IMG/VR virus record: IMGVR_UViG_2693429524_000011
DNA: 8,999 nt
Direction: 5' to 3' (one strand)
Origin: a virus
Lineage: Duplodnaviria; Heunggongvirae; Uroviricota; Caudoviricetes
Part shown: positions 7,418 to 8,999 of the stretch, piece after piece
Layout of the letters: each line of letters starts with the position of its first letter
Numbering within the stretch: the stretch's first letter is position 1
Position numbers and translations under genes: made by a program
Notes under the pieces: model-generated
What the model was told of the DNA's origin: nothing
Database searches by the model: none
What the model saw: the letters and a program-made list of their open reading frames with translations, nothing else

Positions 7418-7558
7418 TTACTCAAAAAAAAGCGACGAGAAAATCAGCATCAACGAACAATAAGCGCCAATACGTGATAACAAATGGCAGCCATATTTAT
7501 CTGCAGTATAAGCAATGGACAGGATAACCACACCAGAAACCGTCAGCATAAAATCCAT
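7418..7558 (-). CDS. Candidate 44-aa hydrophobic small protein (not in the ORF track, which omits ORFs under 60 aa)
   Basis: Hand translation of the minus strand from ATG at 7558: MDFMLTVSGVVILSIAYTADKYGCHLLSRIGAYCSLMLIFSSLFFE*, with stop at plus 7418-7420. GGGGAAG lies about 7 nt upstream of the ATG. It has two hydrophobic stretches and sits in an AT-rich intergenic region. Confidence 0.35.
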   Translation of the reverse strand: MDFMLTVSGVVILSIAYTADKYGCHLLSRIGAYCSLMLIFSSLFFE

Positions 7559-8203
7559 TTGAACTTCCCCGGACAAAATCGACTCATCTAAAGATTTACA
7601 GCTCTTTTTATTATCAATATGTTAAAAGTAAAATAAACAGATGTTCAATAACACGAATACAAAAACGTGCTGAAATTCAATGAATCCATTTCTGTGTCAT
7701 CAATTAATAGTGATAAACATCCGGCTTCTTCCACCATCGCACCGGACAGGCGGCTATGAGGGGACAACGCCGCGCTCCGTTAACGCGGTAAACCCCGGTG
7801 TGTATCGTTTTTGATTATCCCCGCACACTCGCGCAGAAGGAATTCCCCGTCGGGCTACGGTCATGGTTAATGCGGGAATACGGCGACGATACAGCGCATA
7901 ATGTGTCAGGCTTGAATACCTTTATCCGTTAAAAGGGATATCAGTTAAGTTATCCCGTGTAGGGTATAAGCCATTGTCGAGACCACTCATTGAATGGCCT
8001 CTGCAATAACCGATGTCTTTCCATCAGTCCGCCACCACAAAGAATCTTTTTTGCCTTAAGGCTGGAGCTTCATCTTTCAGTGGCTGCCAGTGTTATTTCC
8101 CCACTTACTGGCTTGGGTTGTTTCGCTGTACTGCCGTAACTGGTTGCCAAGAATAAATTCTGGTTTCATTATCAAGCCCACCCGTAGATAGGCTTTGTCA
8201 TGG

Positions 8204-8491
8204 CTACTTCTTCAGAAATGATTCGATGAATTCACGTCGGGGATGACGATAGTTCAGAATATCTTCTGGCATCCTCATAAAGCGGTTGTTGCCGTCTTTG
8301 GCAGTAACAAAACAGCTGTGAACTCCGCAGACATCCGTTTTTATTGTGTCGCTATACTCAAAAAGCAACTGAGCCATCTTCTCTTGCCATTCTGGCGGCA
8401 TAGCCTCCATGAATACTCGCGGCATCACGCAGAACGGCGCATGCGTAAGACCAAACCACAGTTGCAGGTCTTTACGATATTCTTCATCCAT
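8204..8491 (-). CDS. Hypothetical 95-aa prophage cargo protein with a possible His/Cys metal-binding motif
   Basis: ORF-track protein MDEEYRKDLQLWFGLTHAPFCVMPRVFMEAMPPEWQEKMAQLLFEYSDTIKTDVCGVHSCFVTAKDGNNRFMRMPEDILNYRHPRREFIESFLKK. It is in late-operon orientation between the Rz remnant and cos, with a weak AAAGG Shine-Dalgarno. Contains H17, C21 and C55-x2-H58-x-C60. I do not recognise the family. Confidence 0.55.
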   Translation of the reverse strand: MDEEYRKDLQLWFGLTHAPFCVMPRVFMEAMPPEWQEKMAQLLFEYSDTIKTDVCGVHSCFVTAKDGNNRFMRMPEDILNYRHPRREFIESFLKK

Positions 8492-8709: not shown

Positions 8710-8875
8710 TCATCGAAGGCATTGCGTCCTGATGTATTCCTGAAGCGTTCTCAGTGCTGTTTGGTCGCTGATGATTCCGTCCCGGATACCGAGAACGTTT
8801 CGTCCAGCAACTGGAGAGAGTTCGACGGTGGCATCATTGCCCATGCCGGAGGCGCTGGAGGCTTCGGCTGAGGAT
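8710..8875 (-). pseudogene. Rz: C-terminal fragment of the Rz i-spanin, truncated at its 5' side by the IS insertion
   Basis: Minus-strand translation from the IS boundary: SSAEASSASGMGNDATVELSPVAGRNVLGIRDGIISDQTALRTLQEYIRTQCLR*. It resembles the lambda Rz C-terminus (...RLITMQKQLEGTQKYINEQCR*). Stop at plus 8710-8712. Confidence 0.7.
8751..8875 (-). pseudogene. Rz1: C-terminal fragment of the Rz1 o-spanin, embedded in Rz in the +1 frame; signal peptide and lipobox missing
   Basis: Minus-strand +1-frame translation PQPKPPAPPAWAMMPPSNSLQLLDETFSVSGTESSATKQH*, proline-rich like the lambda Rz1 stretch ...CVKPPPPPAWIMQPPPDWQ.... Stop at plus 8751-8753. Confidence 0.6.
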
Positions 8876-8999
8876 TGAACCGCCCCGGAAATCCTGGAGA
8901 CTAAACTCCCTGAGAAAGAGGTAAACAGGATGACTAAAAATACTCGTTTTTCCCCCGAAGTCCGTCAGCGGGCGATTCGTATGGTTCTGGAAAGTCAGG
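8876..8999 (+). mobile_element. Left end of an IS3-family insertion sequence (IS629/IS1203-like); continues past the window end
   Basis: Terminal sequence TGAACCGCCCCGGAAATCCTGGAGACTAAACTCCCTGAGAAAGAGGTAAACAGG precedes the orfA start; this matches my memory of the IS629 left inverted repeat region. The element abuts the truncated Rz/Rz1. Confidence 0.8.
8930..8999 (+). CDS. IS3-family transposase OrfA, N-terminal 23 codons (partial)
   Basis: Translation MTKNTRFSPEVRQRAIRMVLESQ... from ATG at 8930, with GAGG about 10 nt upstream. Recognised as the IS629/IS1203 OrfA N-terminus. Confidence 0.8.
   Translation, partial: MTKNTRFSPEVRQRAIRMVLESQ

Follow-up and report, generated by a model that had tools for sequence, protein, structure and literature searches.

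We describe here a GC-rich module of about 180 nucleotides (nt) in the 8,999-nt stretch of viral DNA held as IMG/VR record IMGVR_UViG_2693429524_000011 (Caudoviricetes; hereafter the window). Judged from the comparison of its copies, the module very probably encodes a conserved structured RNA, read on the minus strand of the window in the sense of the phage late operon. That comparison shows that the sequence evolves so as to preserve a predicted fold of three parts: a bent 5′ hairpin, a variable middle hairpin and a 3′ hairpin. A preliminary description of the window, made from its letters, had marked positions 7735-7895 as resembling an attenuator or small structured RNA on the plus strand. 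This interpretation is partly supported, being right on the structured RNA and on a homologue in phage lambda, and wrong on the strand and on the attenuator or terminator layout.

The limits of the module were set by conservation. Among the 98 unique sequences of the 129 copies collected by a pattern scan of IMG/VR, per-column conservation rises from about 0.45 to above 0.9 at exactly position 7720 and falls off again beyond 7899, which makes the unit a module of 180 nt whose flanks are unrelated and mosaic; 7720-7899 is larger than the interval first marked. A sensitive BLAST search with 7700-7920 matched 398 phage records at 75–96% identity, nearly all of the matches starting at 7719/7720 and ending at 7898/7899 or slightly beyond. 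The window and prophage Sp10 of Escherichia coli Sakai have only the module in common (7726-7899, 90.9% identity), and a covariance model, R1, scores the window module at 217.6 bits on the minus strand. The module is present in 3,009 of 5,426 complete E. coli genomes, at 7,431 places and in up to 10 copies per genome, and RefSeq carries no annotation at these sites. Among 185,579 species-representative genomes the core pattern was found in Escherichia only, together with three probable contaminant contigs; the Salmonella phages ES18 and SPN3UB have the module. Recombinant haplotypes occur within it. One viral contig (L014; IMG/VR UViG_3300045988_154548) holds two module cores, at 5118-5143 and 6068-6093, about 950 nt apart, whose sequences differ in the region of the 3′ hairpin, P1.

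Taken alone, the pairings of the window copy do not exceed chance, and it is solely by comparing other copies that the feature is seen to be real. Three pairings had been proposed at first, each with correct coordinates: (1) gcggc at 7750-7754 with gccgc at 7769-7773; (2) ccgcg at 7770-7774 with cgcgg at 7784-7788; and (3) tatccccgca at 7816-7825 with tgcgggaata at 7871-7880, complementary at 9 of 10 positions around a 45-nt spacer. The GC island in which they were placed is also there (GC content 0.54–0.59 over 7700-7899 against 0.27–0.28 immediately to the left), and, as had been said, it is free of open reading frames (ORFs) of 45 amino acids or more. An inverted-repeat search recovers pairing (3) as one of seven comparable inverted repeats in 750 nt. 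RNAfold gives z-scores of +0.68 on the plus strand and −0.94 on the minus strand for 7735-7895, and −0.85 for the whole module.

In an alignment of six sequences the hairpin arms co-vary, as TCCGG…CCGGA, CTCGA…TCGAG and TCCTG…CAGGA in one hairpin and as CCGCG…CGCGG, CAGC…GCTG and TCTC…GAGA in a second. The consensus fold on the minus strand has 47 pairs in nine helices. Covariation was counted in 46 representatives less than 97% identical to one another, with 500 shuffles and slid registers as controls. Canonical pairs fill 97.2% of the 2,138 cells. By this shuffle-based count, 15 of the 47 pairs have changed on both sides (4.0±1.4 in the shuffles), further pair types number 40 (32.5±1.5) and the covariation score is 0.141 (0.104); none of the 500 shuffles reached the observed value on these or on any of the five measures used. 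In slid registers 34–61% of cells were paired and scores stayed at or below 0.066. Several pairs pass through the series U-A, U-G, C-G, as expected of RNA helices (for example 7891-7803 and 7877-7819 in the 5′ domain), and paired columns are 2.6-fold less variable than unpaired ones. The small structured RNA of the preliminary description is borne out in that pairings (2) and (3) are helices kept through two-sided changes. The parts of the predicted fold, read as late-sense RNA, are the following.

7720-7899, minus strand (late-operon sense): the whole conserved module, about 180 nt, defined by the conservation jump, the BLAST edges and model R1.
7895-7897 with 7750-7752, minus strand: H1, closing helix of 3 base pairs (bp), 95.6% paired, one both-sided change.
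7802-7892, minus strand: the 5′ domain, a long bent hairpin (H2–H5), its helices 98–100% canonical in the 46 representatives.
7886-7892 with 7802-7808, minus strand: H2, 7 bp.
7866-7880 with 7816-7828, minus strand: H3, 11+2 bp, its core being pairing (3).
7855-7860 with 7830-7836, minus strand: H4.
7852-7854 with 7845-7847, minus strand: H5, apical.
7809-7815, minus strand: 3′ side of the asymmetric internal loop between H2 and H3, …AAUCAAAAAC…, the complement of a T-run noted on the plus strand.
7794-7796 with 7760-7762 (span 7760-7796), minus strand: H6, GGG/CCC around the middle hairpin, 98.5% paired.
7784-7788 with 7770-7774, minus strand: H7/H8, the variable middle hairpin, which is pairing (2).
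7741-7747 with 7719-7725, minus strand: P1 (H9), the 3′ hairpin, with a 15-nt loop at 7726-7740.
7769-7773 with 7750-7754, minus strand: pairing (1), a possible alternative conformer, exclusive with H1, H6 and H7/H8.

The single-sequence fold of the window copy recovers the 5′ domain, in which H2 and H3 flank a 5-nt/7-nt internal loop and are 98–99% canonical. On the 3′ side of that loop conservation is 0.97–1.00 in the 98 unique copies, positions 7811-7815 having been fixed by the pattern with which most copies were collected; the segment is unpaired in the consensus structure and reads AAUCAAUAAC in ES18 and UUAAAAC in lambda. All five pairs of the middle hairpin show both-sided changes, the arms being CCGCG/CGCGG, CAGC/GCUG (ES18) or UCUC/GAGA (933W type). 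In P1 five of the seven pairs do so (GUCCGGU/ACCGGAC, CCUG/CAGG, UCGA/UCGA), and wobble pairs appear on the minus strand only; its purine-rich loop is 15–17 nt long across copies and carries a conserved GGAAGAA(A), as GGAAGAAG in the window. Support is weak for H1, because it has a single both-sided change, and for H6, because its variation is one-sided only (G-C to G-U). H1 moreover competes with pairing (1), and the mutually exclusive hairpins of the preliminary description are accordingly backed weakly: pairing (2) stands, whereas (1) amounts essentially to one pair that flips from C-G (19) to G-C (12). Pairing (1) is 89.7% paired, and 13 of 500 shuffles reach its covariation score; the minimum-energy fold predicted for the window copy includes it, and we count it as no more than a weak alternative. 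A look by eye at other possible motifs, namely a pseudoknot between the P1 loop (GGAAGAAA) and a pyrimidine bulge (UUCCUU/CUCCU), Shine-Dalgarno/anti-Shine-Dalgarno sequestration, a boxB-like apical loop, an IHF site (AATCAAAAACGAT) and a PhoP half-site (GGTTTA), found none that was consistent across clades.

The first reading had also pointed to similar arms, with what look like compensatory changes, upstream of bor in lambda. This proved right. R1, which was built without lambda-type copies, finds a homologous copy in lambda at 46,862-47,036 on the plus strand (112 bits, E 1.5e-33), between bor and lambdap78 and about 110 nt from the bor start codon; the differences include CCCGCAU/GUGCGGG to CCCGGAU/GUCCGGG. 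The match in the K-12 prophage DLP12 lies at 579,003-579,178 (111 bits), between borD and ybcV. The viral scan yielded 87 copies of the lambda-type clade, which reduce to 13 unique sequences. In these the 5′ hairpin survives, H3 showing a G-C flip, and so does P1, which is present in both lambda and DLP12; the middle domain is remodelled. The K-12 prophage Qin retains a module remnant of about 50 nt next to ydfO (L135 5464-5514; 19.4 bits, E 7e-5). In another viral record (L030; IMG/VR UViG_2757320581_000006) the 5′ hairpin domain stands alone, about 25 nt before a lambda-like cosQ/cosN; the domains are therefore separable.

Which strand carries the RNA can be read from the wobble pairs. On the minus strand the cells of the 47-pair fold comprise 1,886 Watson-Crick pairs, 192 G·U, 16 A·C and 44 others. 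Since G·U far exceeds A·C, the fold is assigned to the minus strand, that is, to the late-operon sense. In an exhaustive scan of pairs, likewise, the non-Watson-Crick cells of the covarying helices are A·C in plus-strand letters and G·U on the minus strand, and the same helices read on the plus strand are about 89% canonical. RNAalifold, applied to 82 unique copies, gives −12.9 kcal/mol on the plus strand, with 17 mostly invariant pairs and no compensatory change, against −25 to −36 kcal/mol (default parameters) or −87 (ribosum) on the minus strand. On this result a plus-strand RNA was rejected as the principal interpretation; the strand assumed at first is disfavoured by wobble counts and RNAalifold alike. 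The layout of an attenuator or terminator is not supported either. The T-run was indeed present, as five T at 7808-7812, but it starts 19 nt after hairpin (2) and is therefore not a terminator tail; read on the late-sense strand, it belongs to the near-invariant A-rich internal loop (AAUCAAAAAC), and a terminator scan called nothing at 7770-7813 on either strand. Nor is there a fixed regulated gene downstream, its identity and distance varying among copies, which also argues against an attenuator.

A DNA-level explanation, by which the module would be a linker for homologous exchange between mosaic modules or a protein-binding site, would account for the sharp boundaries, the unrelated flanks and the recombinant haplotypes, and long near-invariant runs (TTGATTAT…GCACACTC) are possible binding sites. 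We consider it very unlikely: in five helices pairing is maintained by both-sided changes, constraint is stronger on paired than on unpaired columns, and the excess of G·U over A·C on one strand has no explanation at the level of DNA.

A functional RNA on the plus strand, antisense to the late operon, is the reading assumed at first. It could be a 3′ untranslated region (UTR) element, attenuator or small RNA (sRNA) of the antisense morons expressed in lysogens (YbcV/lambdap78, YlcI or ECs1967-like), or serve bor as a 5′ leader. Antisense-oriented genes adjoin the module in about 68 of 136 copies; genes of the DUF1398/YbcV type end about 2 nt from it, YlcI about 18 nt and one hypothetical type about 86 nt. 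The start of bor lies about 110 nt past the module on that strand in lambda, DLP12 and the 933W-type phages. ES18-type copies have U·G on the plus strand where the late sense has C·A, and strong Hfq peaks lie nearby on the plus strand. The asymmetry of the wobble pairs, however, is 12 to 1 against this strand, its 17 RNAalifold pairs are those without compensatory change, no promoter or terminator was called on it, and many copies, including that of the window on its bor side, have no such neighbour. The peaks, too, prove to be 19-67 nt outside the module, on a moron terminator that halts antisense transcription first. A plus-strand RNA is in our judgement decidedly unlikely.

The peaks in question are EcOnc10 (Sp12), EcOnc11 (Sp10) and EcOnc12 (Sp9), three very strong peaks in Hfq cross-linking and analysis of cDNA (CRAC) in enterohaemorrhagic E. 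coli (EHEC) Sakai (Tree et al. 2014, PMC4104026). With uncorrected coordinates EcOnc11 would lie within the module, antisense to it. This placement was rejected: the mirrored copy in Sp12 disagrees, and an offset between genome versions explains the discrepancy. AgvB served as calibration, its Rfam match lying at 1,941,920-1,941,981 against 1,941,783-1,941,835 in PMC4104026. In this part of the chromosome the offset from NC_002695.1 to NC_002695.2 is +137 to +146, in agreement with the +138 needed by the mirror geometry. The corrected peak in the Sp10 locus (L136) is at 2658-2706, with the module at 2451-2639 on the opposite strand, and all three corrected peaks lie 19-67 nt outside the module. 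The three coincide with the intrinsic terminator and 3′ UTR of the antisense moron (ECs_1967/1788/2255) beside the module (L136 2640-2810, and likewise in Sp9 and Sp12). In Sp10, antisense transcription from the moron stops at this terminator, immediately before the module. The peaks thus occur in prophages that carry the module and in the very gap, between lysis and terminase genes, that holds it, no more than 70 nt away; they differ from it in strand and in lying outside it; the flank that bears them is absent from the window.

Several points weigh against the late-sense structured RNA and must be set beside the covariation. Its folding stability is ordinary (z of −0.85 in the window, −1.07 in lambda and +0.19 in ES18), and because these scores are unremarkable thermodynamics cannot be used as evidence. 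Diversity is shallow, with a median pairwise identity of 81% and the element essentially confined to Escherichia, Shigella and Salmonella phages. The shuffle statistics are not phylogeny-aware and the structure was derived from the same alignment in which it was counted; recombination also shuffles the module, so the counted cells are not independent events. H1 and H6 vary essentially on one side, and the middle domain is remodelled in the lambda-type copies. Two adjacent C·A in H3 of the ES18-type copies would be U·G on the other strand, and about half of all copies directly adjoin an antisense-oriented gene at its stop codon, an arrangement that would fit a role for that strand as well. The C·A pair of mismatches in ES18 (L005 80-268) and in the similar L114 is the main minority evidence against the strand assignment, and the minimum-energy fold of ES18 does not recover the consensus.

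The module does not behave as a gene for a protein. No frame exceeds 31 open copies out of 82, a number attained by one in the late sense. Variable sites fall evenly on the three codon positions (25/23/27, p = 0.85), giving no three-base periodicity; indels of 1, 2, 7, 10, 16 and 17 nt are found, those that break the frame being common; AUG is present in 17 of 46 representatives, with the positions of start and stop unconserved; and Pfam has no match for ORFs of the module. A 10-codon mini-ORF at its 5′ end is unconserved, lambda and ES18 being without it. Annotators have called ORFs of 37-81 amino acids over the module in conflicting strands and frames. Besides the one frame open in those 31 copies, a small protein could point to the late-sense ORF of the 933W clade, which matches phrog_6954 (E 1.3e-50), labelled ‘Rz-like spanin’; this PHROG is composed of near-identical gene calls from Shiga toxin (Stx) phages, and only the 933W-clade ORF belongs to it. 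A small protein-coding gene was rejected on frames, indels, periodicity, AUG and Pfam, and the probability that a small protein is encoded seems to us negligible.

Neither does the module correspond to a catalogued RNA. A cmscan of the whole window against Rfam 15, on both strands and with E up to 1, found nothing at 7720-7899, and as a positive control AgvB and STnc100 were found at their own Sakai loci. The families covered by this negative include AgvB, AsxR, STnc100, IsrK and Esr41 as well as riboswitches and ribozymes. A literature search, which was not exhaustive, on borD/ybcV, on RNA structure in the late operon and on RNase III and the late transcript found nothing on the element. The module appears to be an uncatalogued RNA motif. 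It resembles AgvB/AsxR, Pas, STnc100, StxS/6S, PreS/LPR1 and svsR in being a non-coding RNA at a conserved slot of lambdoid prophages, and differs in that the described prophage sRNAs are short, mostly Hfq-dependent, and primary or terminated transcripts. The slots differ as well: svsR lies within cI, at its 3′ end; Pas and AgvB/AsxR at the Q/P_R′ moron site (or Q-holin region); PreS/LPR1 between ea10 and ral; and LPR2 and 6S near P_R′. Identity with svsR, Pas, AgvB/AsxR or PreS/LPR1/LPR2/6S was rejected, all being at other slots. A parallel in kind is offered by the orphan ‘motif’ families of Rfam, which like the module are defined solely by conservation, covariation and a consistent neighbourhood; unlike them, the module is outside Rfam 15, is taxonomically narrow and occurs in the best-studied phage.

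A census of 136 copies shows that the module always follows the lysis cassette and precedes the packaging genes. On its 5′ side, in the late sense, Rz is the neighbour in 61 of the 136, and otherwise Rha, Ant, small genes or antisense bor; in Sakai Sp9, Sp10 and Sp12 the module begins 5 nt after the Rz stop codon. On the 3′ side the neighbour is an antisense moron (DUF1398/YbcV, YlcI or ECs1967-like), often abutting, a short sense ORF or, immediately, the gene for the small terminase. At least four unrelated terminase types accompany the module (lambda Nu1, 933W-type, Sp10 HNH-associated and Chlobot type; ES18's own terminase genes lie outside the region covered by this comparison), and the lysis genes vary too; within the late operon the module thus forms a unit independent of its neighbours. 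The next sense gene is about 113 nt away in 933W types, where it is terS, and more than 1 kb away in the window and lambda. There is no conserved promoter before the module and no terminator after it: the promoter and terminator scan of the window was empty there, and the flanks are unconserved.

The window itself matches the chromosome of E. coli Z1323CEC0019 (NZ_CP148401.1) at 100% identity, and is a defective lambdoid prophage in reverse orientation, with its late genes on the minus strand of the window. In phage order its features around the module are these.

About 8710-8930: lysis-gene remnant, interrupted by IS1203, first in phage order.
After the lysis-gene remnant: small hypothetical genes.
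7559-8203: unannotated gap holding the GC-rich module.
7418-7558, minus strand: 46-amino-acid hypothetical gene.
7100-7285, plus strand: ylcI/ynfO, antisense to the late operon.
About 6900: cos, placed by alignment to the lambda end junction.
6174-6719: Nu1-type small terminase gene.

The large terminase gene is followed, across a deletion, directly by a truncated tail gene L (window 4042-6199). All head genes and most tail genes are thus missing, and at 8710-8999 a lysis gene is interrupted, the IS1203 insertion being at about 8930. Between cos (about 6900) and the start codon of Nu1 (6719) is a near-perfect inverted repeat, 6738-6805, which gave the only two matches of the Rfam scan, both sub-threshold and to microRNA precursors (E 0.09 and 0.9). 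It aligns with the lambda left end and most likely represents inverted terminase-binding repeats of the cosB type rather than an RNA gene. Immediately 5′ of the module in the late sense is a second mosaic block, 7921-8210, shared at 92–97% with the right ends of phages such as mEp234, HK140, HK446, Kapi1 and SEN22, whose matches stop short of the module. The block contains an imperfect 19-nt inverted repeat at 7922-7969, and its ORF calls vary between records.

In lambda the late transcript runs from P_R′ through S, R and Rz and across cos into the head genes. As it spans the module region, the module RNA would be made only in lytic growth, as an internal segment of mRNA; we infer from established lambda biology that it is an internal part of the Q-antiterminated P_R′ transcript. 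The best explanation overall is a late-sense structured RNA with a role in cis in processing or stability, which as a whole, structure and role blended in one judgement, we rate somewhat short of an even chance. The role by itself, that of a cis-acting processing and stability element of the late mRNA, is drawn by analogy and proposed tentatively. H2 (7 bp) and H3 (13 bp) would stack across the asymmetric internal loop, in a form resembling T7-type RNase III sites. Cleavage there, or a block to 3′-exonucleases, would separate the lysis-gene segment from a downstream, largely untranslated stretch that overlaps antisense genes, and this separation might set the relative lifetimes of lysis and morphogenesis mRNA.

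H2 and H3 together, with about 20 bp, offer the roughly two helical turns of coaxial duplex, often broken by an internal loop, that characterise an RNase III site. From what is generally known of the T7 R1.1-type, lambda N-leader and sib sites, these too are hairpins of irregular form, placed between blocks of genes within one long phage transcript; both they and the module are conserved as a cassette, and neither has a promoter or terminator of its own. The module differs in being three times larger, in its two extra hairpins and many near-invariant unpaired bases, and in showing no sequence similarity to them. Those unpaired nucleotides, like the ordinary folding stability, also count against a simple role in stability, for they hint at something more specific than an exonuclease block.

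Another idea is that the module, once excised from the late transcript, persists as a non-coding RNA with a role in trans, sequestering or guiding a host or phage protein or pairing with targets through the P1 or A-rich loops. In its multi-helix architecture the near-invariant unpaired stretches (AAUCAAAAAC, CACACC and the GGAAGAA(A) loop) exceed the needs of an exonuclease block, and the module moves independently of its neighbours and of terminase type, reaching up to 10 copies per genome. It has, however, no promoter or terminator of its own and unconserved flanks, it is absent from the listed Hfq-bound RNAs of EHEC and from those highlighted in a lambda study of RNA interaction by ligation and sequencing (RIL-seq), and no conserved complementarity to targets was found; on balance a trans-acting RNA is unlikely.

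Alternatively, the RNA might act in cis on the machinery of transcription or translation, as an element of the put kind or against Rho that would sustain RNA polymerase across the long untranslated interval from Rz to the terminase genes, or as a leader governing translation of the next sense gene. The module sits where translation of the late message stops; for up to about 2 kb beyond it the RNA is mostly untranslated and overlaps antisense genes. Its hairpin domains can be separated, as the lone 5′ hairpin before cosQ/cosN shows. Polymerase modified by Q is, as is generally known, already terminator-resistant, and the identity and distance of the next sense gene vary widely, with no conserved pairing found that would sequester a Shine-Dalgarno sequence. 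The put RNAs of HK022 are similar in being structured, in a lambdoid operon, with stem-loops that bear conserved unpaired bases, and they act during transcription. The put sites are about 70 nt long and lie immediately downstream of early promoters, in a phage without N, whereas the module is in mid-operon, after the lysis genes, and is set apart by this position. Action on the transcription or translation machinery is in our view quite unlikely.

A bolder version of the late-sense RNA, which we regard as speculative and somewhat unlikely, is that an undescribed functional RNA of about 180 nt, made only in lytic growth, is encoded by lambda and by the majority of lambdoid prophages in E. coli; its conserved junctions and loops would bind a specific host or phage factor, or catalyse or direct a specific cleavage, and so couple lysis and packaging. 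If that were true, the best-studied virus would harbour a new class of RNA, of which genomes of pathogenic E. coli hold up to 10 copies.

What appears to be new in the present analysis is the module as a conserved structured element of phage mRNA; the kind is a known one, and the element itself is uncatalogued. For annotators it gives reason to drop the contradictory calls of small ORFs over the module, and for prophage finders the module is usable as a marker of the lysis-to-packaging junction. The stretch of lambda between Rz/bor and cos has so far been regarded as dispensable filler with a few morons. A covariation-supported fold there would mean an unrecognised regulatory or processing signal in the late transcript, conserved across phages with unrelated lysis and packaging modules, including Stx phages and the prophages of K-12.

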